From the NCBI GenBank assembly GCA_963808625.1, contig CAWEHK010000051.1, forward strand, positions 32,001 to 96,000: a stretch of DNA of 64,000 nucleotides, given 5' to 3'. The notes beneath the pieces are model-generated. The model saw nothing but the letters and a program-made list of their open reading frames with translations, was not told where the DNA came from and did not search any database. Below, in pieces: positions 2,821 through 33,951 of this stretch. Numbering within the stretch: position 1 is the stretch's first letter; each line of letters opens with the position of its first letter. Both the position numbers and the translations under genes were made by a program. The stretch comes from an uncultured delta proteobacterium (GTDB taxonomy: Bacteria; Desulfobacterota; Syntrophobacteria; Syntrophobacterales; Syntrophobacteraceae).

Positions 2821-3062
2821 ATGGCGACACTCCATGTACGGAATGTACCCAATGAATTAAGCACGAACGCACAGGCGATCGCTCATGCAAACAACCGATC
2901 ATGAGTGCTCAGGTGATCAGCATGCTCAGCAGGGCCGCCGAGGAAGAAGAGCTCAGAGAGTCAAGATCCCAAAAGCTTGCCGCAGTGCGGCGCCAGCGTA
3001 TTACCTATGCAAAGCAGGTCCCTGAAAGTGCGACCCTGTTACGGGAGGATCGGGCGCGATGA
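2821..3062 (+). CDS. FitA/VapB-like ribbon-helix-helix antitoxin (one frameshift near 2900)
   Basis: MATLHVRNVPNEL...NNRS / MSAQVISML...SATLLREDRAR*. The stop overlaps the vapC start (ATGA). Confidence 0.75.
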
Positions 3063-3505
3063 AAGGGGGGCGTTATGTGGTCGATGCGAGTGTAGCGATC
3101 AAGCTCTTTATCGACGAACCGTTTTCGGAGCAGGCAGAGGTCCTTTTTTCGATCCTCAAGGACGATCCGGTAGGGGAATTCTATGTGCCGGACCTCTTCT
3201 TTATCGAGTGCACCAACGTTTTATGGAAACACATCAAAAGGTTCGGCTATCCGGAAGAGAAGGCATACGAGGACCTTGCCGCGCTGAGAGGCCTTTGGCT
3301 TCAAAGCTTCGTAACCGGTGAGCTCGTGGTGGATGCCTTGACGATTGCTGTGGCTCACGACATAACCGCTTATGACGCATGCTATGTAGCGCTTGGCCAG
3401 CAACTGGAAATCCCGCTGGTGACGGCTGATGAAAGACTCGTCAGGAAGATGGCCGATACGGTCCATGCCGTCCAATGGCTCGGAGACCTTTCATTTCTGC
3501 ACTGA
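3059..3505 (+). CDS. vapC: VapC family PIN-domain toxin
   Basis: YVVDASVAIK, FFIECTNVLWK, ITAYDACYVAL and LVTADERL PIN motifs. Confidence 0.9.
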   Translation: MKGGRYVVDASVAIKLFIDEPFSEQAEVLFSILKDDPVGEFYVPDLFFIECTNVLWKHIKRFGYPEEKAYEDLAALRGLWLQSFVTGELVVDALTIAVAHDITAYDACYVALGQQLEIPLVTADERLVRKMADTVHAVQWLGDLSFLH

Positions 3506-3974: not shown

Positions 3975-4080
3975 GAAGCAGATGTAGCAAGAAGCTACTC
4001 AAAGGCATGCTTCGTCGTCAATAAAGCCAGGAAGGCTTTGAGGTGACAGGAGGACCTGTCCGAGCCCTGCTGGCTTTTTA
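3975..4080 (+). promoter_or_regulatory. Candidate dual-hairpin attenuator, copy A (before tonB)
   Basis: GTAGC-AAGAA-GCTAC (3984-3998) nested in GAAGCA/TGCTTC. AAAGCC-AGGAA-GGCTTT (4023-4039) overlaps terminator AAAGCCAG...CTGGCTTTTTA. TTGACA lies at 3928. Confidence 0.65.
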
Positions 4081-4131
4081 TCGTTTTCCGGCAGGACTGA
4101 TTATCATAGAATTTTTAAGTGGTTAGAACGA

Positions 4132-5205
4132 ATGGCAACGCAATCGGTCCTTTCCGCCGCATCCATTTGCGATAATCTAAGTCACCTGGTGGATGAGACA
4201 CATGCCGGCGAAGCGGATTGCCTCGAATGGGCCATGGGGAGGATCGTTATCTCAGGGGAGCGCATTTGGCAGAACCTCGCCATCTCAAGCCTCCTCCACA
4301 TGGCCCTTGCCTTGCTTCTCCTGGTTGCGCCATTTGCCAAAACCACCACGAATCCTCAGGTCCTTCAGGTTCAATTAGTCTCCATGGGTGGCGACGGGGA
4401 CCTTTCCGCCGCTGGCTGCGATGCCCCCGGGGGAGGCCCGCCCGCGGCCTCCGAAGCAGGCAAAGCAACCCCACCCGGGAAGGCTGCCGACAACTCAGCA
4501 GAAAACACGAAATCCGATACCTCCAACAAGGCTCAACTGATCGAGGCGGAAAATAAGCCAGTCCAAGCTGAAGCGACAGCCCCGATGCCGGAGGAGAAGC
4601 CCGTACCTGTCGATGAAAGTAAAGAACCAGCCCCCATCCCGGCACGCGAAGCCATAAAGAAGACCCCGAAGCCACCGGATCGCCCTCTCCCTGCCGCGAA
4701 AAGCAACCTCCAGAAAGCTGCTCCGGATGATGCGAAAACGCGGTCGGAAGCCGATTCCCGACCGGCCTCCGATTCCTCCTCCTCCTCCGAGGGCAATCCC
4801 CAGCTCCGAGATCAAGACGGGGGCAAGTCTTCGTCTACCGGTTCCGGCGAGGGATCGGGGGCGCAAGCCGGTCATGGCCGGGGCGGTCCTTCGGGGAGTG
4901 GACCGTTTGAAGCCCAGTTCGGCTCGCCCAATGGGCCCCGTTTTCTTCGCAAGGCAACACCGAATTATCCCCATCAAGCCCGGCAGATGGAAAAGGAGGG
5001 AACGGTGATCCTGCACGTCACCATCGATGAGATGGGCCGCGCCGTGGAAATCGAGCTGGTGAAAAAGGCCGGGCACGGTTTCGATGAAGAGGCGATCAAG
5101 GCGGTGAGAAATTCAACTTTCGCGCCGGCCAAAAAAGACGGCAGACCTATAACGTGCAAAGCCGTTCTGCCGATCCGCTTCGTCCTGAAAAACACGGAAG
5201 ATTAA
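4132..5205 (+). CDS. tonB: TonB family energy transducer (true start may be the ATG near 4234)
   Basis: TM helix SSLLHMALALLL, Pro/Ser-rich linker, C-terminal PNYPHQARQMEKEGTVILHVTIDEMG...FDEEAIKAV. Confidence 0.9.
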   Translation: MATQSVLSAASICDNLSHLVDETHAGEADCLEWAMGRIVISGERIWQNLAISSLLHMALALLLLVAPFAKTTTNPQVLQVQLVSMGGDGDLSAAGCDAPGGGPPAASEAGKATPPGKAADNSAENTKSDTSNKAQLIEAENKPVQAEATAPMPEEKPVPVDESKEPAPIPAREAIKKTPKPPDRPLPAAKSNLQKAAPDDAKTRSEADSRPASDSSSSSEGNPQLRDQDGGKSSSTGSGEGSGAQAGHGRGGPSGSGPFEAQFGSPNGPRFLRKATPNYPHQARQMEKEGTVILHVTIDEMGRAVEIELVKKAGHGFDEEAIKAVRNSTFAPAKKDGRPITCKAVLPIRFVLKNTED

Positions 5206-5305
5206 TGACGCCCCGGCGGAAGTCTCCAGCGGCTGCCATTCCCGTTTCTTTTCTCGAGTGCAATTTTCCCATGCGACATCCAACCCCGCCTTTCTTTTTC
5301 TGTCT

Positions 5306-5381
5306 TCTCACGCGAAGACGCGAAGACGCAAAGGTAGTGGAGAATCTTCGCGCCTTCGCGCCTTCGCGTCTTCGCGTGAGA
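5306..5381. repeat. Palindromic short-repeat element (CGCGAAGA units / TCTTCGCG units)
   Basis: TCTCACGCGAAGACGCGAAGACGC...CTTCGCGCCTTCGCGTCTTCGCGTGAGA, between convergent genes. Confidence 0.75.
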
Positions 5382-5423
5382 CTTTTCGGCCAATCTCAAG
5401 CACGTCCGCGATGATCCAAAATT

Positions 5424-6203
5424 TTACAGCGCCTGATCAACATTGGGCACGACCAGTGCCCGGTCCCGGTAAGGGATCGAGCGGAGTTCGGTGCCGTATA
5501 CCCGCTGCAGCACCTCGGCGTCCCACGGCTTTTGGGAACTGCTCCATGATTCGATTTGCCCATCTTTTATAAAGACAAACCGGTCGCCATAAAGAAAGGC
5601 GATGTTCGGGTCGTGAAGCACGGCCACGACCGCGAGCTCCGAGCCCGCCAGCTCCCTGATCAGGCGCAGCACATGTGCCTGATTGACAAAATCAAGATGG
5701 GCAGTGGGCTCATCCAGAAGGACAATCTGGGGCTCCTGGGCCAGGACCCTCGCAATCATCACCAACTGCTGTTCGCCCCCGGAGAGTTCCGTGAAAGGGC
5801 GCCATCGCAAGTGGCTCACACCCACCTTCTCCAAAGCCATCAATGCTTTCTGTCGGTCCTCCTGCCCCGGAATCAGGTTCACATAGCTTGCCCGTCCCGT
5901 GAGCACAACATCCTCGACGGAGAACGGAAATATCGGGCGGTGGAATTGCGGCAGGTAGCCAATGATGCGGGCCCGCTCCCGGAGCGTGAGATCACCGAGC
6001 TCCCTGCCCATGACCTGCACCGTCCCTTGCTCAGGGTTGAGCAGGCCGGCCATGATTCGCAACAGCGTTGACTTGCCGCTCCCATTCCTTCCCAAAACGA
6101 TGGTGAACTGCCCCGGTTGGATTTCAACGGTAACGTTATCCAATACCCGCCTGCCGCCATAGCTGAAGGAAAGATGATGACATGTGAGCAGACGACTCTT
6201 CAT
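5424..6203 (-). CDS. FecE/BtuD-type metal-chelate ABC transporter ATPase
   Basis: Walker A GRNGSGKST, signature LSGGEQQ, Walker B VLLDEPTAHLD, H-loop VLHD. Confidence 0.92.
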   Translation of the reverse strand: MKSRLLTCHHLSFSYGGRRVLDNVTVEIQPGQFTIVLGRNGSGKSTLLRIMAGLLNPEQGTVQVMGRELGDLTLRERARIIGYLPQFHRPIFPFSVEDVVLTGRASYVNLIPGQEDRQKALMALEKVGVSHLRWRPFTELSGGEQQLVMIARVLAQEPQIVLLDEPTAHLDFVNQAHVLRLIRELAGSELAVVAVLHDPNIAFLYGDRFVFIKDGQIESWSSSQKPWDAEVLQRVYGTELRSIPYRDRALVVPNVDQAL

Positions 6204-7210
6204 ATTTCCCACCCGAGTTTCGATCGTCGCAGCAGAAAAATGAAGAAGGGGCCGCCAATCAGGGTTGTAAAGATGCCTATCGGCACCTCGAAGGAAGCGG
6301 CAACACGAGAACAATCATCCACCAGGAGCAGGAACGATCCGCCAAGGGCGAGGGAGGCGGGTAAGGTTCGGGTGTTGTCCGGGCCGATCAGCATGCGCGT
6401 CATGTGCGGGACCACCAGCCCCACCAGGCCGATTACCCCGGCCACGGCTACCGAAGCAGACGCCGCCAGGGTTGCCGGGATGAGCACGAAAAGCTTCTGA
6501 TGCTCGGGATTTAACCCCACGGCCCGCGTTTCTTCGTCCCCCAGGGCCAGGACATTCATGCGCCACCGGAAGAGCAGGAGCCAGCCCACCCCTGCCAGGA
6601 TTCCCGGAGCCGAGGAATTGAGCTTCGCCCAGCTGGCATTGTGGAGATTCCCCATGGTCCAGTGGACAATCGTCTGAAGCTTGAAGGGGTCGGTCAAAAA
6701 CTGCACGATGGTGAGAAGTGCGGTAAAAATCCCGGAAACAATGATTCCTGAAAGAATCAGGGAGATGATGGTGACGCTTTTCCGGGTGCGAGCCAGGAAA
6801 TAGCTGGCCCCAACGGCAGCCATGCCAAAAGCGAAAGCGGAAACCTGGAGGGGCATCCACGAGGTGGCCAGGGCCAGCGCCGCACCGAAAGCCGACCCCG
6901 ACGACAGCCCCAGGAGATAGGGGTCAACCAGGGGATTTCGAAAAAGGGCTTGCAGCGCATTGCCGGACCCGGACAGCGCGGCGCCGACCAGGAATGCCAG
7001 CAAAATTCTCGGAAGGCGCACATCCCACACGATCGTACCAACGAGCCCGTCGCCGACCGCAGCAGACGATGCCGGCAAAAACCATGAACCGGTCAGCCAT
7101 GTCAGAACATCACTGGCGCTCACCGTATCGGCCGGCCCCAGGAATAAAGACACGATCAAAACCGGGAGCGGAGTTGCGTATATTAGATAAAGCGCCATTC
7201 TGGGACGCAA
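6200..7210 (-). CDS. FecCD-family ABC permease
   Basis: VRLPRILLAFLVGAALS, QALFRNPLVDPYLLG, GLVGLVVPH, EVPIGIFTTLIGGPFF. Confidence 0.92.
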   Translation of the reverse strand: MRPRMALYLIYATPLPVLIVSLFLGPADTVSASDVLTWLTGSWFLPASSAAVGDGLVGTIVWDVRLPRILLAFLVGAALSGSGNALQALFRNPLVDPYLLGLSSGSAFGAALALATSWMPLQVSAFAFGMAAVGASYFLARTRKSVTIISLILSGIIVSGIFTALLTIVQFLTDPFKLQTIVHWTMGNLHNASWAKLNSSAPGILAGVGWLLLFRWRMNVLALGDEETRAVGLNPEHQKLFVLIPATLAASASVAVAGVIGLVGLVVPHMTRMLIGPDNTRTLPASLALGGSFLLLVDDCSRVAASFEVPIGIFTTLIGGPFFIFLLRRSKLGWEI

Positions 7211-7233
7211 AGCCTGATTCCTGTCGCCGCTCG

Positions 7234-7405
7234 CTAAGAGCGTGTCTTAAAACAGAAAGTAAGTGACCTTGTCATGATTTCCGACTGAGCCCCCGATCGT
7301 CATTCCCGCATGCATCTAGCGGGAATCCATGTTCTTAAAGGCCTGGACCCCCGCCAAACACATGCGGGGGTGACGCTCAGAGGGACTGTTTGGACACGCT
7401 CTAAG
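7234..7405. mobile_element. MITE-like element with REP-type internal palindromes
   Basis: Terminal inverted repeats AGAGCGTGTC (7237) / GACACGCTCT (7393) with TA flanks. Core is GTCATTCCCGC...GCGGGAATCC and CTGGACCCCCGC...GCGGGGGTGAC. Confidence 0.65.
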
Positions 7406-8443
7406 GCAGAAGCTCGATGAGAGCAGGCCTCTCGCCATACAGTTCCCGGACGAGGACCAGCTTCTCTCTTTCAGGTCCAGGTCGCGAAACAGCTCGGGAT
7501 AGCACCATTTGGCAACCATCTTCACGGCATACTGATACTTGAGGGTCCAAAGATCGCAGGAAAAGATGTCAGGAAACTCGTAAACCCGCTGCTGCCGCAC
7601 CGCGCTTATGGACTGCCACATGGGGTTATGCAGAATGTCGGCAGGATCTTTCCTCGCATTGTACCACATGACGATTACCTGCGGGTCCCATTTGAGGACC
7701 TTCTCCATATTGACTACGAGATGCTCCTGCTCGATGGAAGCGCAGACATTCACCGCCCCGGCCAGGGTGATCAGCTCATCGACGGTGCTCGGTCTGCCGG
7801 AGGTCTCCAGATCCCCCTGAGCCCACATGTAATAGACCCGCACCCGTCTCCCCCGGCGCCACGGCAGCGGTTCTGCTCGCACCTCGGCCCAGGGCCTCCT
7901 TGGTGCGAGCGACAAGCTCGACGGCCCTTTCCCGCTTCCCCGTCAGGTCCCCAAGGGCGAGCATTTCCTGGTAGACATCCTCGAAACTCCGGATAAAAAT
8001 CCCAAAAACCGGGATTCCCCGTTCTTCGAGAGCGCGAATGGCCTCTTCCTGATGCGCCCAGATGATCACCAGGTCGGGCTTCAACCCGACCACTTTTTCG
8101 ATATTGATGAAATCCCAGTTTCCGGGTGTGGGCAGACTCCTGCTGCGAATCCTCTCATCCATCGCCGCATAGTAGCGAAAGGTCTCTTCCTGATACACAT
8201 TAGCGGAGATGCCGACGACTCTCGCTTCCGCCCCCAGCATGTAAATGCCGCTGAGTGCGCTTTCGATGAGGCAGACGATCCGTTCTGCCGGTTGCCGGAG
8301 CAGAATATTTGCCTCGGAAGTCCTGCACTTCGATGGGTTGAGCGGAACCTTCTTGCGCAAAGGCCATGGCGAAAGAGGGAGGAATACTCCCCCTCGAACA
8401 CCTGGGTGAGCAGCAGTGCAATGAGCAGAAAAAACTTCAACAA
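7401..8443 (-). CDS. FecB/BtuF-type ABC substrate-binding protein (frameshifted)
   Basis: Pieces MLKFFLLIALLL (signal), PAERIVCL...INIEKVVGLKPDLVIIW, VNMEKVLKWDPQVIVMW...ISAVRQQRVY. Confidence 0.8.
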
Positions 8444-8458
8444 ATCCGCTTCAAACGC

Positions 8459-8585
8459 TCACTCCTCATTTCCCCATCCTTACTCCTGACTGCTTACTCC
8501 TGACTATTTTTGCCGTTACTCACTGCTTACTCCTCGCCTTAGCTTACTCCGCTTAGCTGCGCTCTACTCCACTCCCTACTCATCA
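8459..8585. repeat. Degenerate heptamer tandem array (TTACTCC/TTACTCA)
   Basis: Repeated TTACTC units immediately 3' of the TonB-dependent receptor stop; reads GAGTAA on the coding strand. Confidence 0.6.
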
Positions 8586-8604
8586 CCCGTCGCGCCCTCC
8601 TTTG

Positions 8605-10671
8605 CTAGAAGCGCATTTCCACACCACCGGCCGCAGAAAAACCGGGGTCCTGGAACTGCCAGGGCATTTCATAGGTGTTATTGGTAATGTTGTAGAGATC
8701 CAGATGCAGATCCAGGTAATGGGCATCGTTCTGGATTAGGACCTTGGTCAATTTCATGTTCAAGACTTCGTAGGCATCAAACTGCTGCCGGCCGCTCCTC
8801 GAGTCGCTGTCATAAATGGAGCCGCTGACATGCAGGTAGAGAGCTGCCGAGAAGTTCTTGGGGAAGTCCAGGATGACTCCGACATTCCCCATATTTTCGG
8901 GGACAAATGGAATTTCGGTGCCGTCCTGATCGGGATAGAGGTCATTGCCAGACGCGCGAGTGGGTATAGGTGTAATTGCCAAACCACTGGAGCCAGGGGA
9001 GGAGCCGGTGCCGGATTTCAAACTCCACACCGTAGGAGGTGGCGCTGCCGGCGTTGACGTCTATGGACTGGGAAGGATCGTTACTGACCCGGTTGGTAAT
9101 GATGGCATTATCCAGCATATTGCCGAATCCGCGCAAACTGAGCTTGACGTTTTTGATCGGCTGATAATCGATTCCCAGGTCCGTCCCGAGGCCCGTTTCC
9201 GGTTGTAGACCCGGATTGGGAAGCTGACCGTTTTTGCCGGGAACTCCCACATCACTGGGAAGGAGCGTCCCGCCAATGGATTTGATCCCGGGGACGAGAA
9301 AACTCGAACCGGCATTTCCATAAACCGAGAGGTCTTCGGAGAAGTTATAGCGCACCCCGCCGCTCCAGAGAGGTTTGTCCCATGACTGGCTGTCTATGGC
9401 CGGGACCGTGCCGCCAATGAGGTCGTAGTTCTGCCACGACCAATTGTAGCGCCCGCCGGCGCGGAAGATCCAGTTGCACAAGTAATATTCTTCCTGCAGA
9501 TAGAGGCCTGATTGGTAGGCGCTGGCATCATTTCCAATCACCTGGTAGCCGTTGGCCGGCGTCGAAAAAGTCCGATAGGTCCCATACTGGAAATCGGTGC
9601 CGACCGTCAGGACGCTGTTTTCCAGGTGCCTGATCGAAAACGAAGCATCGGCGGGGAAGATTTTCTGTTCCACCCCGTTATTGGAATTGAGGCTGAGATC
9701 CGGATAGTTGTCCTCCGTCCAGCTCCGATCATAATTGCGGTAGCCCGCCTTCACCTGTGCCGTCAGTAATTGTTGATTTCATTGTAGTAATTGGCGTTGG
9801 CAATGGAGTAGGTGTGATCGAACGAGACGATTGGGGCGCCCCACGTTGCCGTCATGCCAGGTCTGGTTGCCAAAAAGGGAGAGCTTGTGGTTTTCGTCGC
9901 CGCCAAAGTAATAGGTTGCACGCCCGAAGAGCTTCAATTTCTGAATAATCGGGGTTATCGAGGATATGCAGCCACGAGTCCTGGGTCCCATAGTTGGTGT
10001 AATCGGATTTTTCCCCCCAGCCCCCCACATAAAAGTGGAGATTCTCAATCCGGTACTGGCCGATGCCATGGCCGGTGACGGTATTGTAGGAGCCGTAGTC
10101 AAGAGACCCCCGGGTTTGGTTTTCAAAGGTTCTTTCTTTCAGAATGAAATTGGTCGTTCCGGCCAGGGGACTCTGATTTCCGGCGAAGTCCTGGGAGAGG
10201 TAGTTGGGGTAGAGGACCGATGCCGGACCTTTTTGCGTCTCGATCCTCGCCAGCGCCCACGGGATCAAGGGCCATCGGGTCCACAAAGGAGTCGATGGGC
10301 AGGCCATCCAGAAGGTAGGTGTTATACTTGGGACCAAGTCCGCCATAGGAGCCCCAGTTGGCGTCATTCCTGGAGAGCACGTTGACGAAAACCCCCGGTG
10401 TATACATCAGCGCCTCGGCGATATTCCGATTTTCCAGGACGATCTGATCAAGAGTTTTCTGGGTGATGACATCCACCTTCTGCGTCACGTTGCCTTTCGT
10501 CTGGGGCAGCTTGGATGCCGTCACCACGATGCTCTCGAGTTGAGCAGCGCTCCCAAAGTAGCTCGCATCGTTCTGGTCTGGATTGGCTCCGGGATTCGCC
10601 TGTTGCGCGAAACAGGGCACGGGGATAAGGACGAGCATCAACAATGGTAAAATCGTCAAATAGTGCTTCAT
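8605..10671 (-). CDS. TonB-dependent receptor 1 (several frameshifts)
   Basis: Signal peptide, TonB-box-like LESIVVTASK, plug pieces (PGV..., RIETQKGPASVLY), NPGLQPETG, C-terminal LYNITNNTY...GGVEMRF. Confidence 0.85.
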
Positions 10672-10814
10672 GTCTCGGCTCCTTTCAACAATGAAGTTCA
10701 GCACTTTTCGCACAACCCATCGCCCCGGTCCGGCATCGCCGAAACCGCTGATGGGGTGCTTTGCTGTCCTTCGCGAGGGTGATGGGAAAATTTCGAGGAG
10801 TCGGCAGTCGCACG

Positions 10815-10947
10815 AAAAAAGCCACGACGACAGTCAACCCTCTTGGTCGAAAAGCCTTCGTGGCTCTGATTGTTTCCTAAAAACGCTCTGGCCTTTGCTG
10901 CGTTGCCTTCTCACCTTCCTGGTGAGGATCGCCTTCCCTTTAGCGCA
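10815..10947 (-). promoter_or_regulatory. Candidate dual-hairpin attenuator, copy B (before receptor 1/ABC operon)
   Basis: On the minus strand: CTCACC-AGGAA-GGTGAG, then AGCC-ACGAA-GGCT overlapping terminator AGCCACGA...TCGTGGCTTTTTT. Close paralogue of 18592-18725. Confidence 0.75.
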
Positions 10948-11391
10948 GATGGGCTAAGATTTCAAGCTGAAAATGAGAAAAGAAGCACATACCGTCCGGA
11001 TTTTTTGCACCTCACGATCCGAGACTCCGATGCACGCCATATATATTAATGGAGAGCAGGTTCCGCAGACTATTATGCAGAGACCACAGCGCGGCGTAGC
11101 CGCAACCAAAACTGGGTGGGAATATTAACGATACCAACAGGTTCCAAAGAAAATCTTGGCAAAAAAACAAGAAACTCGGCATTAGTATCACAGGCAGCCG
11201 CTCGTCACGGCGAGCTGAACCTTTCAGCAGAGGATTTATACCGGAGTTTCAGTGGCTTCACATATTGCTTGACGAGCGCTCAAGGGGAAGCTAAGGAATA
11301 GCGGTCCCCGGGTTCGGAGAAAATTTCGCTCAATGAATGGGCGGGCCGGTGTGGTCCGGGGTTCGGTTTTTCCTGCCTTAATTTTATAGTA

Positions 11392-11497
11392 TCTGGATCG
11401 AAAACATAGACTGTTTCACTGCCAGGTTACCTCGCAAATGAGGCCACGAAGGCCCCTGAGCCCGCTGTGAAAGCGGGAGGGGCGCCGGTATGTGGCA
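11392..11497 (+). promoter_or_regulatory. Candidate attenuator, copy C (before receptor 2)
   Basis: GGCC-ACGAA-GGCC (11442-11454); GCCAC can alternatively pair with GTGGC (11492-11496) just 5' of the RBS AAGGAG. TATAGT lies at 11385. Confidence 0.55.
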
Positions 11498-11516
11498 CAT
11501 TCGCAAGGAGCCTATC

Positions 11517-13563
11517 ATGATTACCCGTTTCTTTTCCCTCCTGGTTCTTTTCCTGTTCGTTTTCATGCTCAGCATCGGGTTCATCGCACCCCTGGGCGGC
11601 AGCGCCGAGGCCCAGGACGACGACAGGGCAAATCCTCTTCGGATCAAGTCCCACTGGTGCGTCGTCCGCCACCGCAACCCCCAAGGAGAAGACCTATGCG
11701 CTGGAAGAGATCCTGGTGGTAGCGCCGCCTGTCATCGAGGGCAACCAGGTCAACCGCCTCGGGAGTCAGTCGACCGTTGTCAGTGAAAAACAAATCGAAG
11801 ACCTCAATGCCCAGGACCTCCCGCAAGCACTGCGCATGGTGCCCGGCGTCGTCATTTCCCGATTCAATCCCATCGGCAGTTTTGGCGGGCGGTGAGGGCG
11901 GCTCCATTTTCATTCGTGGCCAGGGCAGTTCACGGCCGGGAGCAGAAGTCCTGACGCTTATCGATGGCATCCCCAAGTTCGTAAGCGTCTGGACTCACCC
12001 TCTGATGGATGTTCTGAACGTGGATATCGCCGACAATATCCAGGTCTATAAGGGAGCGCAGCCGGTGCTCTACGGCAATATGGCGGTTGCCGGCGCGGTG
12101 GACATCACGACCAAGCGGAAGAAAGAAGACGGATTCTACACCAACCTTCAAGCCGCAGGCGGTTCCTACAACAGCGCCATCGAGGTCGCTCAGACCGGCG
12201 GCAGGATAAAGGCCCTGGACTATTACCTGGTCCAGAGCTTTCGCCGCTCGGACGGCCATCGGCCTGATGCCGACGGCGCCTTGCAGAACTACTTCGGGCA
12301 TATGGGCTACCAGATGTCGGGGAACTGGGATGCGGGCGTCACCTTCAACGCATCCAATAACTGGGCGGACGATCCCGGACGCATCGACGGCTTGGCCCCG
12401 ACCCCAGGGAACGTTCAAAACCAACGGACTACTTTACGGTGGCAACCATCGCCAACCAATACGAGTCACACGGACGGTTATTTCAAGGCCTATTCGGACG
12501 TCGGCCACATCAAATGGCTGGACCAGTTCAACACGACCACCAAGAAGAACACGGACGACACCCTGACCGATTACAACAATTACGGTTTCAGGGCTCGTCA
12601 AACGGTTAAGAGCATGGGATGGCGGGGAATTTCTCCTGGGCATGGATCTGGATGCGATCAGCGGACAGGTTGACCTGGTTTCGCCGTCGGCGGCAAGGCG
12701 GCATTGGGGCGATGAAACGTGGCATATATTTGCGCCTTACCTTGCCTTAAGTCAATTGTTCGGATCGAAAGACAGCTTCTATGCCATTCCCTCCGCCGGC
12801 GCCCGTTACTTTTCTCACGATCAGTTCGGGACCGAAATGGGGCCCCAGGCCGGGTCTGATTCTGGGGTACAAGGATACGGAATTCCATGCGATGTATTCT
12901 CGAGGCGTCAATTATCCCGGCCTCTTCGTGAAGGCGAACAGCGATCTCTTCATGCCGGGAGACAACAAATGGCAGAATTTGAGCCCCGAGACCGTCAATC
13001 ATTACGAAGTGGGCATCAGTCAGCGATACAAGAAATGGGCGAAGATCGATTTCACCCTTTTCTACGACGATGGTGACAATCGCATTGTCACGACTACGCC
13101 TCCTCCCTTCCCTCCCCTCTGGACCAATTTCGGGGCGTACCGCAACAAAGGCGTGGAAGGCACCGTGACGGTCTTTCCTCTCGATGATCTCTCCCTTTAC
13201 GCAGGAGCGACCTACCTCGACACCACGCCTTCCGATCTGCCTTATGCTCCCGAATGGAGTACGAGCTTCGGCGCGAACTACCGGTTCCTGAAATACTTTC
13301 AGGCAAGCCTGGATGCCCTTTATCTCACCGACTATTTTGTCAATTCCCGCGCCCGCAGTGCCACGGCCCTCAATATTGACAAGGTGGATGGCTATTTTCT
13401 CTTGAATGCCAAGCTCACTTATGATTTCAATATGCCTTTCCGCCAGATGAGGGGCCAGCTCTTTATCGCCGGCGAGAACTTGACCAATGCAAGCTACCAA
13501 CAAAAAGCCGGCTATCCCATGCCGGGGATAAACGGAATGGGTGGATTCAAACTGACTTTCTGA
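11517..13563 (+). CDS. TonB-dependent receptor 2 (several frameshifts)
   Basis: Signal peptide, plug (IFIRGQG...LIDGIP...IQVYKGAQPVLYG...AGAVDITTK), LSPETVNHYEVG, C-terminal GENLTNASY...GYPMPG...GFKLTF. Confidence 0.85.
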
Positions 13564-13586
13564 AAGGATTGACGAGGGAACATCCG

Positions 13587-15076
13587 ATGCGCCGAAAATT
13601 CTTGCTTCTGGCCGCTTTGCTGGCGGTACAATTACTGTTTGTGGGCTCTCCCGGAGCGGCCCATGAAGCAGCGAACACCTATCATTGTCGACACCGATAT
13701 GGCCCTGGATGACGTCCGGGCGATCATCCTGCTGCTCAGTTCCCCGCACGTGGCCGTGACCGCCTTCGTTACCTCCGACGGCTCATCGTCTCCCGAAGCC
13801 GGCTCCCATAATCTGGAAAGGGTGCTCGCCTTCTTGGGCAAGAGCGACATCCCCGTCGGCACGGGTCGGCAGCTCAATCTGCCGCCTCCGCCCTGGCGGC
13901 CCATTTCGGAAGCGCTGGGCTGGGCGGACCTCCCCGCAGGAAGCCAGGGCACTCCCGGGGGAACACGCCCGGCGGTCCCGCTCATCCTCGAGGTGCTCTC
14001 CCAAAGCCGGGAACCGGTGAGCTATGTCTGCCTGGGGCCGCTCACCAACCTGGCCGACGTACTCCGCGAGCAACCGTCTGCGGCCCAACGGATAGCAAGC
14101 GTCATTTATTACGGCTTGCCGCCCGCAGCGCCCGATCCGGGATGGAACACGAGCCGCGACAAGGAGGCCGCGGAAATCGTGTTTCGCTCCGGCATACCCT
14201 TCTATGCCGTGCACTTGACGCCTGAACAATGGCTCACCTTCGATGCGGCGCTGTACCAGGAAATCGCCAAAATCGACACCGAACCGGCCCGCCTGATCAC
14301 CCGGCTCCACCAGCATGAAAAGACCCAGAAGCTGCTGCAGGCAAATCATTTCGTCGCCTGGGATGAATCGGTGGCATTGTACCTGGACGAACCGGCCATC
14401 GGCATTTTCAAGAAAATGGAGCAATCCGATTCCGTGTTCAGCGTGGCCGCATGGGATCGCGCCGCGGCGCGCGCCGTCTACCTGGCCATCCTCGCCAACC
14501 CGGCGACACCGGGGCTCGGCGGCCGCACCCCGGTGGTCCTCAGCGAGCTATCCCACTCAGCCGGCGCTCTTTCAGGAGGATCTCCGCCCGCTGGTTTCAA
14601 AGATCATTGCCCTCTACGGCCTCGAGGAGTGGCAGACCACCGTCCTCACCAACGAGTTGCACCGGCACTTGGGCATCTATTCCATCCTCGGCGCCAAGAT
14701 GGGAATCCGGGCGCGAGAACTGCTGTCGGCATCGCTTGATGAACTTGCCGTGGAGAGCTTCGCCGGCCTGGCACCACCGGTGAGCTGCCTCAACGACGGC
14801 TTGCAGGTGGCGACCGGGGCCAGCCTGGGAAGAGGCACCATCAGCGTGCCGACCACCGCCTCACCCACGGCCGAAGCCGTCTTTGTCAAGGGCAGCCGGA
14901 GGCTGCACCTGCGCCTGAAGGATGAGATCAGGAACCGCATTCGGGCCGATATCCAGCGGGCCGTTCAGCAGCACGGGAATCTCACCCCGGAGTATTTCAA
15001 GGAGGTGCGGAGGCTTTCCCTGCAATACTGGGCGGAGATGAACCGCGCGGAGATCTTTGAAGCCCGGTTCGAATAA
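13587..15076 (+). CDS. Nucleoside-hydrolase-like domain fused to an FmdE-family domain (frameshifts near the start and ~14550)
   Basis: IIVDTDMALDD and CLGPLTNLA (IU-NH motifs), followed by NELHRHLGIYSILGAKMG...SCLNDGLQVATGASLGRG (FmdE motif). Confidence 0.75.
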
Positions 15077-15272
15077 CGGGCTTCCCGGAATGATCCCTGC
15101 ACCCTGGCAGGATCGCCTCAGCACTTGGCGATCGACATGACCACCGGGAAGTTTTGTCAGTAAAATTGGGCCAGGAAGGCTCCTGAGTTGAACACGGCAC
15201 GGTGGCGCTTGAGGCTTCTATATTGATGCAGCCTGCCACCGCCTATTTTTCAGTAAAAATGCAAAAAATGAT

Positions 15273-15300
15273 TTGACATTCCGTTTCTTCCATGTAGAAT
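15273..15300 (+). promoter_or_regulatory. Sigma70-type promoter
   Basis: TTGACA-16 nt-TAGAAT. Confidence 0.6.
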
Positions 15301-15302
15301 GC

Positions 15303-15409
15303 TCTCACTTTGAGCATTGAAGCTCGAGAAACTGAGGTTATAGATCTTTCTGTTCTGAATTGGGTCATGAAGGCCGGAGGTGGAATGAACGTCACCTCTG
15401 GCCTTTTTT
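15303..15409 (+). promoter_or_regulatory. Candidate dual-hairpin attenuator, copy D, with intrinsic terminator
   Basis: TTGAGC-ATTGAA-GCTCGA, then GGTC-ATGAA-GGCC (15363-15375) overlapping terminator AAGGCCGGAGGTG...CACCTCTGGCCTTTTTT. Confidence 0.6.
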
Positions 15410-16063
15410 GTCTTTGAGTAAGAGACTCAACTCGCTGAGACTGTTCGGGAGACGGATATCTTCTTCCTGTGTGCATAATCTGCTTTGTGCGCACCTGTTA
15501 ACAGGACCAATGACGAGAGTAGTGATGAACCGGGAGTTGCAAACAGAGCAAGTTTTGCAGAGTGGCGGAGTAATATTGTCACCTCTTGATGTGATCTTGT
15601 GAATGATGTGCTCCTCCGGGCAGTCATCTCAAAGTAGTAGACAGAGTTGTAGGTTCAAAAAAATTTAACGCAGGGCGCAAACCGATCTCCTCGGGTCGTA
15701 TACGCCGTAACACCAAAGGGGGCCAGAAGGCCCCCTATCCTTCCTCATCAAAAGATAGAAACATGATCGGATGCTTGCTTCGCAGCCGATGTTTCGTGGT
15801 GAATAGATATTATCATATTTGTGGTCCTGGCAGTCTGATAGTTCTTAGCCTACGAGAAGGTGAACTTCCTTGAGCGTTTGCAGGAAAGAGCCCAACGCAT
15901 GGCGCGCCAGGGGAATTGGAAAACAAGGTTAGGAGTGTGGTCACGAAGGCCAGCAGTGATGCTGGCTTTCGTGTTTTGGTGCGCTGGTGGGAGCCGGAAA
16001 CTGCCGTTCACTTTGAGAATCCTTCGACTTCGATGCAGGCCGGTGCTGCAGGAGGAGGTTGCC

Positions 16064-17174
16064 ATGCCCGTCAACCGGAAGCGCGACGCGCTGGTTTTGG
16101 ACCAGGGGGAAATCGAGAGGCTTCAAACCATTCAATCCTCAGGAAAGGAATCTCCTTGGTCCGTCGTTCGTGCGGGAATTCTATTACGATACGCCCGCGG
16201 TGAAGCCATCAGCGAAATTGCCCGCCAAGAAGGTGTGAGCCGCCCCACCGTCCAGCATTGCCTCGACAAGGCTTTGTCGGGGGGCATAGAGACGGCGATT
16301 CGCGACCTGTCCCGTACGGGACGGCCCTCCATGGTGACCGCTGAAGACAAGGCCTGGGTAATGCACCTTGCTTGCTCCAGGCCCAGAGAGCATGGATATG
16401 AGTCAGAAGAATGGACTTTGAGCCAATTGACCAGCCATGTTCGAAAACACGCAACAGAGACAGATCATCTCTCGTCGAGATGCTCAGAAATACATTATTC
16501 GTACGATAATAAAGGAGTCGGCAGGTAGTCCCCACAATGTGGCCTATTATTCCGACCGACGGGAGCCGGAAGACGGGGCAAGAATGGCTTCCCTCTTTGC
16601 CGTCGCCAAGGATGTTGAACTGCTGCTGGAAACCGGCGCAGAGAGGGGCATCAGGAACACAGAAATCCCCCACAGCCGCCCCCGGAACTCCAAGGGGCGT
16701 GCTGCCACCGATATTACCGCGGACCTGGTTTCAGAACCGAATTCGCATCCCTTCTGGTTCAGAGACTACGAACGCGACCAGCTCGGGAGGGTTCATCTGC
16801 TGGCTGGGATTGATCTTTGCGATGGTCACGTCATCGCGACGGTTTGCGACAAGAGCCGGAAGCAGGGGTTTGTCGATTTCCTGGAGGTTGCCGACGACCA
16901 CTACCCGCCGGACTGGCGAATCAGGATTTTGCTAGGCGGCCGCTCGGCCGATGTCTCCAGACAGAACATGAAAGCACTGAGAAGATACCCCAATCGCTTC
17001 GAGTTCGTTCACGCCGATGGGGATGAATCGTGGCTGAACCTTGTTGATCTTTTTTTCACCAGAATGACACGAGGGTTCGTCAGGTCGATACGGGCAAAAT
17101 CAAAGGCAGAGTGTATCAACCGCATCAATGATTACGTCGGAGAGATCAATTTCCTGCCGGCCGGCATCACCTGA
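16064..17174 (+). CDS. IS630-family transposase-derived protein, apparently lacking the DDE triad (one frameshift ~16470)
   Basis: RBS GGAGGAGG; HTH region (RAGILL...ISEIARQEGVSRPTV...RTGRP...WTLSQL); RNase-H-like region with LLAGIDL and SWLNLV. Confidence 0.75.
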
Positions 17175-17254
17175 CTTTGCCGTCCGAAAGTGAGCAAGCT
17201 CAGCCGTAGATACCCTCTCCCCTTTTGACACCGAATACGGCGCCCCATCCCGAA

Positions 17255-17464
17255 TCAGGCATGAATTTCGACGGTAAAATCTTCCACGAACAGAATCCGG
17301 CGGAGGTTGAGATTGATTTCCTGAATCCGGGCCGTCATCCGGTACTGCCGCCCGTATATGTCATGGATGAAGACTTCCTCTCTTTCAGACGCAACGATGT
17401 TAACATTCTCAAGGATGAGTTGCGCCCTTCCACCCCGCACCAGATAGGCTTCGACCTCGCACAT
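17255..17464 (-). CDS. cooT: CooT-family nickel-binding protein
   Basis: MCEVEAYL...LILENV...DIYG...IQEINLNLRRILF. Confidence 0.8.
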   Translation of the reverse strand: MCEVEAYLVRGGRAQLILENVNIVASEREEVFIHDIYGRQYRMTARIQEINLNLRRILFVEDFTVEIHA

Positions 17465-17515
17465 ACTCGTCCTCCTCAATCGATGCTGCTCGGTTCGACC
17501 TTTTGCTCCTGATTC

Positions 17516-18019
17516 TCAGGCCTTCAAGTGTTTGACAGGTTTCTCAACACCGAGGGACGAATTTTGAGACCGAGATTGATGTCGGATTTGGGCAAGGTCG
17601 CTGCCATTCATGATGGCGGACAGATGTTCGTTGACCAGCTTGTCAACCAGATGAGGCAGAGGGGTAAAGACGGTGCCCACAATGACCACAGGTTCCAGGG
17701 TGAGGGGCAGCAGCAGTTTGATCGCCTTCGCTGCACCGGTTGCGTGGGCCATGGCCGGACTGACCTCTCCCATCATCGCGTTGCTGATGATAATCGAAAT
17801 CGGTCCGATGATCACATCCACCTGATGGACACAATGACAGACGGCGTTTTCTCCGGTCGCACCCCGGTTTGCACCGACTTTCATCATCTGGGAAGTCGCC
17901 ACAGCATTGGTTCCGATGGCCCAGATTTCCACCCTCTCGCCATAGGCCTGCCTGATCTCTCTGATGATAGCGGAACCGATACCCGCTCCCTGTCCATCTA
18001 TTACTGCGATCCGGATCAC
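17516..18019 (-). CDS. DUF3842 family protein
   Basis: IAVIDGQGAGIG, AIGTNAVATSQMMKVGANRGATGENA, NAMMGEVSPAMA. Confidence 0.85.
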   Translation of the reverse strand: MIRIAVIDGQGAGIGSAIIREIRQAYGERVEIWAIGTNAVATSQMMKVGANRGATGENAVCHCVHQVDVIIGPISIIISNAMMGEVSPAMAHATGAAKAIKLLLPLTLEPVVIVGTVFTPLPHLVDKLVNEHLSAIMNGSDLAQIRHQSRSQNSSLGVEKPVKHLKA

Positions 18020-18037
18020 AATCCCACTCCCTGAAAC

Positions 18038-18226
18038 TTAGCCTTCTTCCAGCACGATCCGGTGATTGACGAGATTCATCTCTTTAATGCGTCCCTTCAC
18101 CCAGCGCTGTTGTCCAAAGATGCCCTGAATGAAAACGTTCTCACTATCGGGCTTGATGATATCCGCGCTTTCCATAATGAGCTCTTCTTTCCCTCCAACG
18201 AGCAAATAAACGTTTGCCTCACACAT
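18038..18226 (-). CDS. cooT: CooT-family nickel-binding protein
   Basis: MCEANVYL...EELIMES...IFGQQRWVKGRIKEMNLVNHRIVLE. Confidence 0.88.
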   Translation of the reverse strand: MCEANVYLLVGGKEELIMESADIIKPDSENVFIQGIFGQQRWVKGRIKEMNLVNHRIVLEEG

Positions 18227-18591
18227 CTTCTCATCCTTTCTCCCCAGTCTGCGTCCTTAGCAAACTGCGGCATTGAGATCCTGAAAGCATTGCTTCGAGA
18301 AAACGCCCTCTCACCTCCGAAAACACTCTCCGCTCGTGCCAAAGATTGCCGTGAAGCTTTTCGTCTCTCCTCCTTCCTCCTGAGGGCATGGCGTCGCATG
18401 AACAAGAAAAGCCACACAACGCGGTTCACCCATCTCCGGGCAGGTTAAAGACTTTCGCAGCCTTTGCTTCACAAGCTGAACGGAAAGCTTTCCGCAACAC
18501 AAATGTTCGCTGATTTACGAGAAAGGCACAAGAAACGCCTCAGTCGAGGCAGGTATCAACAGAGGGGCGGGAGCGCGTGGTGCTGTCGGAC

Positions 18592-18725
18592 AAAAAAATC
18601 CACGACGACATTCAACCCCTTTGGTCGAAAAGCCTTCGTGGCTCTGATTGTGTTCCTAAAATGCTTTGGTTGTTGCTGAGTTACTCTCTTACCTTCCTGG
18701 TAAGCATCGCCTTGTTTTTAGCGCA
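18592..18725 (-). promoter_or_regulatory. Candidate dual-hairpin attenuator, copy E (before cooT-DUF3842-cooT)
   Basis: On the minus strand: CTTACC-AGGAA-GGTAAG, then AGCC-ACGAA-GGCT overlapping terminator CCACGA...TCGTGGATTTTTTT. Confidence 0.75.
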
Positions 18726-18848
18726 TTCGGTGTGGAATTACAAGATCAAAGTCTCCATGCAATTGCCATGGGAGAGAGATTTTGTTCTGTTGACCTATGT
18801 CGATAAGCATGGTAGGCGTTGTAGGGCAATACATAGTATTGTAAATAA

Positions 18849-18957
18849 CCTGGAGTCAGGAACTCCGGAACACGCCATAACCAAGCGAATGAAATGTAAA
18901 GCCATGAAGGCTTGCGATCCTCTTAAGGGGACGTTTGCCCTCATGGCTTTTTATTTT
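18849..18957 (+). promoter_or_regulatory. Candidate dual-hairpin attenuator, copy F (before cbiM operon)
   Basis: CTGGAGT-CAGGA-ACTCCGG, then AAGCC-ATGAA-GGCTT (18899-18913) overlapping terminator AAAGCCATGA...TCATGGCTTTTTATTTT. Confidence 0.7.
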
Positions 18958-19022: not shown

Positions 19023-19628
19023 ATGCACATTTCTGAAGGAGTGCTCAGTCCGGCGGTCCTGGGCGCCGGGGCCGCGTTGGCGGCCGTGGGAACCGCCATT
19101 GGTCTGAAAAAGATGGAATACGATGCCATTCCCAGGGTGGCCATCCTGTCCGCCGCTTTCTTTGTGGCCACCCTGATTCATGTGCCGGTAGGACCAGTCG
19201 GTTTGCACCTCGTGCTAAACGGCCTCATGGGGCTGCTGTTGGGGTGGACGGCGGTGCCCGCTATCCTGATCGCCCTGTTCCTGCAGGCCCTCCTCTTCCA
19301 GTTCGGAGGGCTGACCGTGTTAGGGGCGAATACGGTCATCATGGCTCTCCCTGCCGTGGTCTGTTTCTATTTGTTTCGCCCCTTGTTTCGTCGTCCCGGT
19401 ATCGCTCAGTCGGTGGGGGCTTTTGCCTGCGGTTTCACCGCTATTTTGCTCAGCGCGCTGTTGGTGGCCGTAGCCCTCATTTCCACCGGCCAGGCCTTTT
19501 TGCAAGTGGCCGAACTGGCCGTTCTGGCCCATATTCCGGTGATGTTCATCGAAGCCATCGTCACCCTGTTTATTTTCCTGTTTCTTAGAAAGGTTCGCCC
19601 CGAAATGCTGGAGGATTTGTATGCCTAA
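19023..19628 (+). CDS. cbiM: CbiM/NikM ECF-type Co/Ni substrate-specific component
   Basis: N-terminal MHISEG metal-binding motif; HLVLNGLMG; QFGGLTVLGAN. Confidence 0.92.
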   Translation: MHISEGVLSPAVLGAGAALAAVGTAIGLKKMEYDAIPRVAILSAAFFVATLIHVPVGPVGLHLVLNGLMGLLLGWTAVPAILIALFLQALLFQFGGLTVLGANTVIMALPAVVCFYLFRPLFRRPGIAQSVGAFACGFTAILLSALLVAVALISTGQAFLQVAELAVLAHIPVMFIEAIVTLFIFLFLRKVRPEMLEDLYA

Positions 19629-20349
19629 ACAGACGCCACCAATATTCGCCAGTGATTCTTTCCTTTATCGTCCGATCTCCGCTAAAACCTCCCACCCTTG
19701 GCTCATCCCGATCATGCTTTGCCTCTGCCTCCTGACCCTGGCCTCCCCGGCCCTGGCCCATCGGGTGCTCGTCTTCGCCTATGCCGAAGGCGACACCATC
19801 CATACCGAAAGCAAATTCGTGGGCAGCGGTGCGGTGCAACAAGGGAAGGTGCAGATCCTGGATCAAAAAACCGGGAAGGTCCTCTTGACCGGGACTACCG
19901 ACGACCAGGGCAAATTCTCTTTCAAAATTCCCCCCGAGGCTGCCGCCCAAAGGCTGGATCTGCTCGTCGTGGTGGAGGCCTCTATGGGCCACCGTGGCGA
20001 ATGGCAGATGAAAGCCCACAGCTATCTTCCAGGCGCTGAAACGGCTGCCGGCGCGGCTACTCCCGTCGCGCCAAGCCCTGCTGCTGCCGGCGCACCAACT
20101 TCGGAGGCCCCTGCAACCCCGACGCCGCTGGCTCCTCCCGATATCAGGGCGCCCGCCGTCGACCGGCAGATGCTGGAGGAGACCCTGAATAAGGTTTTGG
20201 AACGCCAACTCGCCCCCATCAAGGAAATGCTGGCGGAATCACAGGTGCACAAGACTACCCTGACCGACATCATCGGCGGCATCGGTTATATCATGGGCAT
20301 CTTTGGCCTGCTGGCCTATTTTCAGAGTAAGAAGAAGAAGGATTCGTGA
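19621..20349 (+). CDS. CbiL/NikL-like accessory component of the Co/Ni ECF transporter
   Basis: Signal ending ALA-HRVLVFAY, GTTDDQGKFSF, ASMGHRGEW, C-terminal TM IIGGIGYIMGIFGLLAY; lies between cbiM and cbiQ. Confidence 0.7.
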   Translation: MPKQTPPIFASDSFLYRPISAKTSHPWLIPIMLCLCLLTLASPALAHRVLVFAYAEGDTIHTESKFVGSGAVQQGKVQILDQKTGKVLLTGTTDDQGKFSFKIPPEAAAQRLDLLVVVEASMGHRGEWQMKAHSYLPGAETAAGAATPVAPSPAAAGAPTSEAPATPTPLAPPDIRAPAVDRQMLEETLNKVLERQLAPIKEMLAESQVHKTTLTDIIGGIGYIMGIFGLLAYFQSKKKKDS

Positions 20350-21122
20350 GCGGCATTCAAGAGCCTTTCTCCGAAGGCAACTCTTTGATCCACCGCCTCG
20401 ACCCCCGGGGCAAGACAATCGTGGCCGGCCTTTTCGCTGTTATGGTGGCCGTGGCCAAATCCATGCCCGCGGCCTTGGCCGGGCTGGTGCTGTCTCTGCT
20501 CTGCCTGGCCCTGGCGCGTCTTCCTCTGAAAAAGGTGATCGTGCGGCTGCTGGTGGTGAACAGCTTCATTTTTTTCCTCTGGTTCGTATTGCCGCTGACC
20601 TACCCGGGGGATGCGGTGCTTACCTTCGGGCCCCTGTCCGCCACCCGGCAGGGCCTGATCTTCACCGCTCTGATCACCCTGAAATCCAATGCTATTATCA
20701 TTGCCCTCATGGCTTTGGTCGCCACGGTGCCGGTCGTCACTCTGGGACAGGCAATGCACGATATGCGGTTGCCCGACAAATTGTGTCATTTGCTGCTCTT
20801 TACCTACCGCTACCTCTATGTCTTTGAGCAGGAATTCCACCGCCTGGTCCAGGCCATGAAAATCCGCGGCTTTCAGCCGCGCACCAATCTCCACACCTAT
20901 CGCTCCTACGCCTATCTGGCGGCCATGCTGCTGGTGCGCAGCTATGACCGGGCCGACCGCGTTTTTCAGGCCATGTTGTGCCGTGGTTTTCACGGCATTT
21001 TTTACAGCCTGCGCACCTTTTCCTGGCAGCGCCGTGATTGGGTATTAGTGGTGGTATCCACGCTGGCGTTGGCGATGCTCCTCTATCTGGAGTGGCAGAT
21101 GCCCAACCTCGCTAGTGAGGAT
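20346..21122 (+). CDS. cbiQ: CbiQ/NikQ ECF T component (no stop before cbiO in this assembly)
   Basis: HRLDPRGK, FTYRYL, AMKIRGF, RSYDRADRVFQAMLCRGF. Confidence 0.85.
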
Positions 21123-21812
21123 ATGATGAGTGAACCATTGATTGAGTTGCATGACATCACGTTTGCCTACCCCGGAGCCACCCACCCGGTTTTTCAGGGC
21201 CTGAACTATCAGCTCCTGCCGGGCAAACAGATCGGCCTCATCGGTCCCAACGGCTGCGGCAAGACCACCCTCTTGCACCTGATCATGGGGCTGTTGCGCC
21301 CCCAGGCGGGCAGCATCGTCGTTTTCGGGCAGGAAGTCAAAAAAGAGAAGGATTTCGTCGAGGTCCGGCAAAAGGTGGGCCTGCTGTTCCAAAACGCCGA
21401 CGATCAGCTCTTCTGTCCCACCGTCTTAGAAGATGTGGCCTTCGGCCCACTGAACCAGGGGAAACCACCGGCGGAAGCGATAAAGATCGCGCGGGAGACC
21501 ATGGAGCGGCTGGGACTTGAGGGCTTCGAAGACCGGGTGACCTATAAGCTCTCCGGGGGCGAGAAGAAACTGGTCTCCCTGGCCACCGTCCTGGCCATGC
21601 AGCCTCAGGTGCTCCTCCTGGATGAGCCCACCGCGGGCCTGGATGAGAAGACCAAGAAGCGTCTCATCCATATTCTTAAGAACCTGGATATTACTTTCAT
21701 GGTCGTGTCGCATGAAAATGATTTTTTGGAGCATACCGTGGGGGAATGCTGCCATGTTCATACCAGCTTTTGCGAATTTATTCCAATGGGCCAAGGGGGG
21801 AGATTGTTATGA
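21123..21812 (+). CDS. cbiO: CbiO/NikO ECF ATPase
   Basis: GPNGCGKTT, FQNADDQLFCPTVLEDVAFGP, LSGGEKK, LLLDEPTAGLD; the C-terminus looks short. Confidence 0.85.
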   Translation: MMSEPLIELHDITFAYPGATHPVFQGLNYQLLPGKQIGLIGPNGCGKTTLLHLIMGLLRPQAGSIVVFGQEVKKEKDFVEVRQKVGLLFQNADDQLFCPTVLEDVAFGPLNQGKPPAEAIKIARETMERLGLEGFEDRVTYKLSGGEKKLVSLATVLAMQPQVLLLDEPTAGLDEKTKKRLIHILKNLDITFMVVSHENDFLEHTVGECCHVHTSFCEFIPMGQGGRLL

Positions 21813-33904: not shown

Positions 33905-33951
33905 GAAACCTCCTCTTCCCCCCTCGGGGATACGGTTAAGGTCTGACATCG

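Follow-up and report, generated by a model that had tools for sequence, protein, structure and literature searches.

Leader copies and associated genes in the window

The sequence analyzed here (the window) is a 64,000-nucleotide stretch of contig CAWEHK010000051.1 from an uncultured delta proteobacterium of the family Syntrophobacteraceae. It carries a series of related RNA leaders, labeled A to G, before genes that include tonB, two TonB-dependent receptor genes, cooT-DUF3842-cooT, and a cbiM/nikM operon. The core of the leader is a short hairpin, GCC-ANGAA-GGC (P2), which shares bases with an intrinsic terminator, in its 5′ arm; a further hairpin (P1) can be located upstream. The initial annotation, made from the letters alone, had described six leaders, A to F, and their positions and loops agreed with the sequence, but the set was incomplete, as copy G and one bare hairpin had been overlooked. 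The sequence G(C/T)C-ANGAA-GGC was found eight times between positions 3700 and 19200, where 0.23 occurrences would be expected from the 71 copies in the 4.8-Mb source genome. This genome is 84.6% complete, and single-gene absences from it may reflect assembly gaps.

Leaders were scored using R1, a covariance model of the terminator pairs, with no P2 pairs, built partly from leaders A, D, E, and F; downstream genes were assigned using Pfam, which confirmed the identities previously proposed for them. Leader A (3984 to 4080, +; R1, 42.2 bits) contains P1 at 3984 to 3998 (loop AAGAA), P2 at 4023 to 4039 (AGGAA), and a terminator with a U-tract. A TTGACA sequence lies upstream at 3928, and the gene behind the leader is tonB (4132 to 5205, +; TonB_C). 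Leader B (10815 to 10926, −; 53.7 bits), with P1 at 10910 to 10926 (AGGAA), P2 at 10851 to 10867 (ACGAA), and a terminator with a U-tract, precedes a unit (5424 to 10713, −) encoding a TonB-dependent receptor in several frames, a periplasmic binding protein, a FecCD permease, and an ABC ATPase. Leader E (18592 to 18704, −; 52.7 bits) has P1 at 18688 to 18704 (AGGAA), P2 at 18629 to 18645 (ACGAA), and a terminator with a U-tract. Behind it are cooT copy 1 (18038 to 18226, −; PF10133, E value, 1e−24; match to 6fan, E value, 2e−13), the DUF3842 gene (17516 to 18019, −; PF12953, 5.8e−50), and cooT copy 2 (17255 to 17464, −; PF10133, 7e−14). Leaders B and E are near duplicates (113 identical positions over 133/134 nucleotides [nt]) and were not regarded as independent copies. 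Leader F (18852 to 18953, +; 58.3 bits), with an upstream hairpin at 18852 to 18866, P2 at 18898 to 18913 (ATGAA), and a terminator with a U-tract, lies before the cbiM/nikM operon (19023 to 23578, +), which encodes CbiM, an unannotated membrane protein, CbiQ with an ATPase, a porin-like protein, and a DUF4198 protein.

The remaining copies were more divergent or had less obvious partners. Leader C (11402 to 11497, +) has P2 at 11442 to 11454 (ACGAA) and a pairing partner, with no U-tract and no R1 match, and is probably a decayed or translational copy. It precedes a unit (11517 to 15076, +) encoding a second TonB-dependent receptor in several frames and a protein with nucleoside hydrolase-like and FmdE domains; an orthologue of this receptor in a related genome (G035; 78% identity) carries a complete terminator-type leader. 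Leader D (15309 to 15410, +; 26.2 bits) consists of P1 at 15309 to 15328, P2 at 15363 to 15375 (ATGAA), and a strong terminator, with a σ70-like promoter ahead of it at 15273 to 15300. Leader G (15939 to 15979, +), comprising P2 (GGTC-ACGAA-GGCC) and a terminator, is located before an IS630-like helix-turn-helix gene. D lies 530 nt upstream of G in tandem on the same strand, with no recognized gene in between (15410 to 15939); this interval holds a G+C hairpin at 15717 to 15736. The bare GCC-AGGAA-GGC hairpin (15168 to 15182, +) is located past the FmdE gene and is without a U-tract.

A strict scan of the source genome for two hairpins and a U-tract returned five loci: leaders A, B, D, and E, together with a fifth locus on contig C50 (approximately 72080 to 71970, −). 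The last carries three GAA hairpins directly before a second cbiM/nikM-N-Q-O-type operon and, like C and G, was missed by R1. Consistent with the earlier statement that leaders were absent from the core half of the window and from its B12 operon, the R1 scan gave no match past position 18961, with the proviso that the model was built partly from four of the leaders themselves.

A conserved hairpin in predicted competition with a terminator

P2 was previously described as mutually exclusive with a longer stem and U-tract in five copies, and this agreed with the folds obtained. In A, B, E, and F, P2 lies entirely within the 5′ arm of the longer stem; in D, this holds for the 3′ half alone. In predictions for nascent RNA, the closing pair of P2 had a probability of 0.8 to 1.0 in six window leaders and of 0.3 in B, whereas the full terminator-type fold was predicted to be 4 to 14 kcal/mol more stable than the P2 state. 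Something must therefore hold P2 for readthrough to take place.

Both alternative structures showed compensatory changes. For the terminator (68 rows, mostly pattern selected), 23 compensatory changes linked the variable loop base to the 3′ arm, and many G-U pairs were present besides. For the P2 stem, 17 compensatory cells were counted against 6.8 in shuffles, using 34 R1 matches, 3 of which were reverse-strand or false. These controls take no account of relatedness among rows. The spacer ranged from 12 to 42 nt. The conserved core spans approximately 11 nt, and upstream of it only A-richness was also conserved.

None of the queries used to collect copies included P1. The 148 nonredundant copies used were the 156 pattern matches minus 8 (3 that did not fold as terminators, the rest from the source genome or duplicates). 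Under a strict rule, with looser forms uncounted, a C-(A)NGAA-G hairpin was found upstream in 59 of them, compared with a mean of 2.4 and a maximum of 7 in 200 shuffles; alternative loop endings were found in no more than 5 copies each. The P1 loops, mostly AUGAA, AGAA, AAGAA, and UGAA, are closed by C-G, and the pairing is common to the copies while the stem sequences are very different. The distance from P1 to P2 varied from 11 to 105 nt, and 89 copies had no P1 by this rule. Thus, the upstream hairpin reported for every leader appears to be optional in the family, and a dual hairpin is probably not obligatory; the P1 loops given for C (TAGAC) and F (CAGGA) are off the family consensus.

Rfam gave no family match at the gathering score on the window leaders or on leaders in 20 relative loci, and none on the window leaders at E values up to 10, in keeping with the initial view that they are not NiCo, Moco, or B12 riboswitches. 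P2 resembles a segment of the cobalamin riboswitch consensus (GCCAC...GAAGGC), but no other cobalamin element backs this likeness. In two relative loci (L125, 305 to 356; L037, 2501 to 2557), a single inverted repeat can be read on either strand as P2 with a terminator; the former has an open reading frame (ORF) in each direction and may attenuate two overlapping transcripts.

The layout is that of ANTAR antitermination. In the available text of PMC3369931, the targets of EutV, NasR, and AmiR carry two small hairpins with conserved purines in six-base loops (A1/G4), the second overlapping the 5′ arm of a terminator whose formation the protein, once bound, is proposed to prevent. The P2 hairpins here are likewise mutually exclusive with an intrinsic terminator, but the leader loops are 4 to 5 nt and end in GAA. 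P2 loops have five bases, and only 1 of the 59 P1 loops in relatives has six, without A1. The earlier claim that the loops differ from those of ANTAR targets therefore stands for P2 and fails for P1 of leader D, a six-base A1/G4 loop (ATTGAA) and the only loop in the window to fit. The leaders work like ANTAR antitermination and are not ANTAR targets. Overall, they represent a real, widespread, and uncatalogued cis-regulatory RNA, and they are very likely regulated attenuators; the control logic is of a known kind, while the RNA site, candidate proteins, and signal are new.

Distribution and downstream genes

A pattern comprising P2 and the terminator end was run on the 96 genomes of the order and gave 83 matches, spread over 48 of them, against 3 in the reversed control. 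A scan of all species returned at least 120 matches; among those listed, the named carriers were mostly sulfate reducers and their kin, with others from Nitrospirota, Clostridia, NC10, Acidobacteriota, and Actinomycetota. Cultured species among them are Desulfoluna butyratoxydans and Thermovorax subterraneus.

For the target survey, the longest ORF near each leader, not always the first gene, was selected, and 104 of the 151 picked ORFs were sent to Pfam, omitting 36 ORFs whose loci had 300-nt flanks, along with duplicates and those loci where the genes had been identified by eye (cbiM, cooT, DUF3842, porin, and tonB). A Pfam match was obtained for 84, of which 58 were uptake components: 18 TonB-dependent receptors, 13 porins, 7 CbiM, 7 FecCD or binding proteins, 6 TonB/ExbB, 3 family-5 binding proteins, 3 ECF S-components, and 1 ABC ATPase. 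The other 26 included 5 FmdE, 5 CooT/DUF3842, 5 methyltransferases, 2 chelatase ATPases, 1 TrmO-like and 1 NuoE-like protein, and 7 others. The enrichment in metal-related genes proposed at the outset was thus strong, and in Bacillota CbiM accounted for 7 of 21 downstream ORFs. The NuoE-like target is the first gene of an [FeFe]-hydrogenase operon; leaders before such operons or genes were found in three genomes (G034, G088 [two leaders], and G089), the enzymes of the last two being periplasmic.

According to the available part of PMC545781, related bacteria have predicted NikR sites ahead of nikMNQO, of nikK, and of the gene for an Fe-only hydrogenase, with expression presumed at low nickel. 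The leader targets mirror this predicted regulon (nikM/K/Q/O and Fe-only hydrogenase), which suggests that they are on when nickel is low. Unlike NikR, which represses initiation on DNA, the leaders act on nascent RNA, and the two are mostly mutually exclusive.

Two further gene types recurred near the leaders. In Bacillota lacking CooT (L219 [G119], L220 [G293], L062, and L094), a PF12822 ECF S-component gene lies behind the leader, and one such locus has cobalamin riboswitches downstream. The gene order in G119 is a nickel insertion gene, DUF1893, DUF3842, leader, and S-component. A histidine-rich protein of approximately 100 to 120 amino acids with no Pfam match, not found in the source genome by tblastn, recurs behind the leader and beside cooT-DUF3842 elsewhere (L003, L024, L026, L229:14537-14896, and L231:8533-8835) and is a candidate nickel store.

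Near exclusion with NikR and the candidate regulators DUF3842 and CooT

Across 151 genomes sampled evenly from the phylum of the window, R1 matched 39, DUF3842 was present in 58, and NikR was present in 71. DUF3842 was found in 38 of the 39 motif carriers, and the motif in only 1 of the 93 genomes without DUF3842. NikR was found in 6 of 39 carriers versus 65 of 112 noncarriers and in 8 of 58 DUF3842 genomes versus 63 of 93 others. The carriers cover 21 families, and in four of these (f31, f39, f44, and f53) a NikR-only member had neither the motif nor DUF3842. Five of the 20 DUF3842 genomes without an R1 match were inspected, and a C-(A)NGAA-G hairpin was identified before the cbiM operon in all five (two clear P2-terminator variants and three looser ones), although a second cbiM locus in one of them (G158) has none; R1, which overlooks divergent copies, gave two weak matches in these genomes. 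The hairpin was found in none of three cbiM loci from NikR-only genomes. No NikR gene was found in the incomplete source genome.

The leader was present at only 4 of 30 DUF3842 loci, which fits a regulator rather than a target, and CooT adjoined DUF3842 in 29 of the 30. Among 50 carriers drawn from across phyla, CooT was found in 41 and DUF3842 in 42; CooT was also present in 90 of the 96 order genomes. No other small protein was as widely recurrent among the ORF families near motif loci and DUF3842 loci. DUF3842 is predicted to form a small domain of Rossmann-like fold, in which a glycine-rich loop is conserved. CooT copy 1 matched the known CooT fold (Z score, 11.9; root mean square deviation [RMSD], 1.4; 60 residues aligned), and Cys2, through which CooT binds one Ni per dimer with a Kd of 9 nM, is kept in both window copies; the available text of the review reporting this binding (PMC6006190) terms the function of CooT unclear. 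An older label for CooT reads "predicted RNA-binding," but the fold search clearly gave CooT alone (Hfq Z score, 3.2), and the idea of an Hfq/Sm-like RNA binder gained no support.

Taken together, these observations suggest a transcription attenuator in which P2 would form first in the emerging RNA and the more stable terminator would then take over its bases, making termination the default. A protein would bind P2 at its C-(A)NGAA-G loop and, in copies that have P1, that loop as well, most likely acting as a dimer; by keeping P2 in place, it would let polymerase read through. Judging from the targets, readthrough would occur when nickel is scarce, turning on uptake genes and nickel-free [FeFe]-hydrogenases. 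The distribution points to the DUF3842/CooT pair as the factor; in the simplest form, DUF3842 would read the hairpin, and CooT, as a nickel-binding dimer, would be the sensor that switches it off. Such a system would do the job of NikR in lineages that mostly lack it. It is likely that control is mediated by a protein, and nickel is the likely signal, specifically because of the near exclusion with NikR and the [FeFe]-hydrogenase targets; the assignment of the factor to DUF3842/CooT, drawn from genomic patterns, is somewhat more likely than not, and the complete model, a DUF3842/CooT-read, nickel-responsive attenuator in place of NikR, is an even call. A protein- or metal-controlled regulon for Ni/Co acquisition, as initially proposed, was supported by the Rfam, covariation, and target analyses and can be narrowed to one that probably involves a protein and nickel. 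More tentatively, DUF3842 could be a new RNA-binding family for C-(A)NGAA-G hairpins and CooT, now described as a CODH metallochaperone, a nickel sensor, the pair having replaced NikR across many anaerobic lineages; its regulon would then comprise nickel uptake, the change to [FeFe]-hydrogenase, and even a captured IS630-like gene.

A precedent for a Rossmann-like DUF3842 in this role is PyrR, which has the fold of an enzyme but reads RNA and controls a terminator in a ligand-switched manner. HutP, as described in the available text of PMC12591593, is likewise a ligand-switched protein that decides terminator formation. The leaders differ from both in RNA site, protein family, and ligand, and no sequence or fold link to either was found. 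If correct, the model would provide a function for the unstudied DUF3842 family, a role for CooT, and a candidate regulon for anaerobes that run on nickel enzymes without NikR and have no described regulation of nickel uptake. The motif also flags unannotated receptors, porins, and methyltransferases as nickel related. The model would also add a class of metal-sensing antiterminator proteins; by term search, nickel is absent from the 2025 review of RNA-binding antiterminators (PMC12591593). No description of the motif was found in the literature searched, which covered neither most subscription journals nor the supplements of PMC11109978 and PMC5737381, both of which could hold it. Term searches gave no nickel/cobalt motif in the main texts of PMC11109978, PMC8632094, and PMC5737381 or in one supplement of PMC8632094, and the available portions of PMC11247825 and PMC6344411 contained nothing on this regulation.

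Several observations weigh against DUF3842/CooT as the factor. The fold search with DUF3842 gave no RNA-binding match and no specific relative (best Z score, 9.5; RMSD, 3.6; 136 residues aligned; many ties), and the protein is not notably basic. DUF3842 was not found in 8 of the 50 cross-phylum carriers, nor in G278, which is 95% complete; G106 and G107 have CooT without DUF3842, and neither protein was found in G365, although its cbiM is preceded by a full leader. Conversely, G119 and G293 have DUF3842, directly upstream of the leader, without CooT. In a separate set of 151 Bacillota the link was weaker, with DUF3842 in 12 of 14 R1 matches but in 76 of all genomes, and CooT fits equally well (11 of 14 and 53 of 151); one of the 14 (G439/L204) is a false match without P2. 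Related genomes are not independent, so the significance of co-occurrence (Fisher) is overstated, and co-occurrence cannot tell a regulator from a co-inherited target, as leader E precedes cooT-DUF3842 itself.

The same gaps could mean that a different, unlinked protein reads the same nickel-responsive attenuator and that DUF3842 and CooT are only module members or helpers. Carriers lacking one or both proteins, the lack of an RNA-binding fold match for either, and the placement of cooT-DUF3842 under leader E like any target would all be accommodated. This is nevertheless unlikely given how closely DUF3842 tracks the motif across the phylum and the lack of any equally widespread small protein among the families near motif or DUF3842 loci.

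An improbable alternative is a protein-free mechanism in which Ni2+, Co2+, or a metal complex is recognized by the GAA loops themselves, with P1 and P2 docking as in guanidine-II. The guanidine-II riboswitch also consists of two small hairpins and a linker, and the conserved purine loops, variable linker, absence of a proven protein, and G365 leader without either candidate would suit such a very small riboswitch. However, its core would be only about 11 nt, with little but A-richness conserved upstream and P1 often absent or at widely varying distance; a metal-stabilized P2 would turn uptake on at high metal, the wrong sign for these targets; and the DUF3842 profile would be left unexplained. 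The NiCo/czcD riboswitch, a larger junction RNA that also gives RNA-level Ni/Co control, turns on export at high metal. Unlike either riboswitch, the leaders have no Rfam match, and one of their two hairpins, P1, appears dispensable.

Less probable again is a protein-read attenuator that responds not to nickel but to cobalt or a corrinoid, or else to a nucleotide that the Rossmann-like DUF3842 would bind. Some targets do suggest cobalt or other cargo, among them chelatase subunits, methyltransferases, and the ECF S-components of CooT-less Bacillota, one with cobalamin riboswitches downstream, and CbiM covers cobalt carriers too. Nickel is favored over these signals by the near exclusion with NikR, the [FeFe]-hydrogenase targets, and the nickel insertion gene beside the G119 copy, and the B12 genes of the window use riboswitches of the ordinary kind: the Rfam matches at 33935 to 34106 (−), 35552 to 35733 (−), and 38857 to 38930 (−) comprised a tRNA and two cobalamin riboswitches located before B12/cbiK genes.

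CsrA/RsmA sites carry GGA in the loop. It is very improbable that the leaders carry a variant loop recognized by ANTAR or CsrA, or that they are terminators without regulation or palindromes in DNA: despite the ANTAR-like layout, P1 of leader D, and the GGA inside AGGAA loops, a search for ANTAR succeeded in 23 of 50 carriers and failed in the source genome (27 absences are unlikely all to be assembly gaps), GGA occurs in only 15 of the 83 order-wide P2 loops, where the base is left free, no csrA was found in the source genome, and the 12- to 42-nt spacer, the G-U pairs, and the diversity of P1 stems favor an RNA over a DNA site. The csrA search covered five genomes, of which three had the gene; in G106, as in the source genome, it was not found.

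The IS630-like gene behind leader G (16064 to 17174, +) occupies two frames at a single genomic locus and is conserved in relatives. It was identified in 11 of the 96 order genomes, at one locus each (G030 has a second, partial match), with 40 to 77% identity to the query, and was preceded by the same leader as G in 8 of the 11. The product may be a transposase that has been domesticated and brought under the control of nickel; the presence of the gene in only 11 genomes led to its rejection as the reader. Genes broken across frames in 7316 to 13563 and 13639 to 17174, namely, both receptors, the binding protein, the FmdE fusion, and the IS630-like gene, may reflect assembly error or decay. 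Elsewhere in the source genome, a second DUF3842 gene (C5:5765-6148) and a third cooT (C41:113782-113961) are located on separate contigs, where a relaxed scan found no leader. Upstream of the leader cluster, the window also contains a PIN-domain (VapC-like) gene (3059 to 3505, +).

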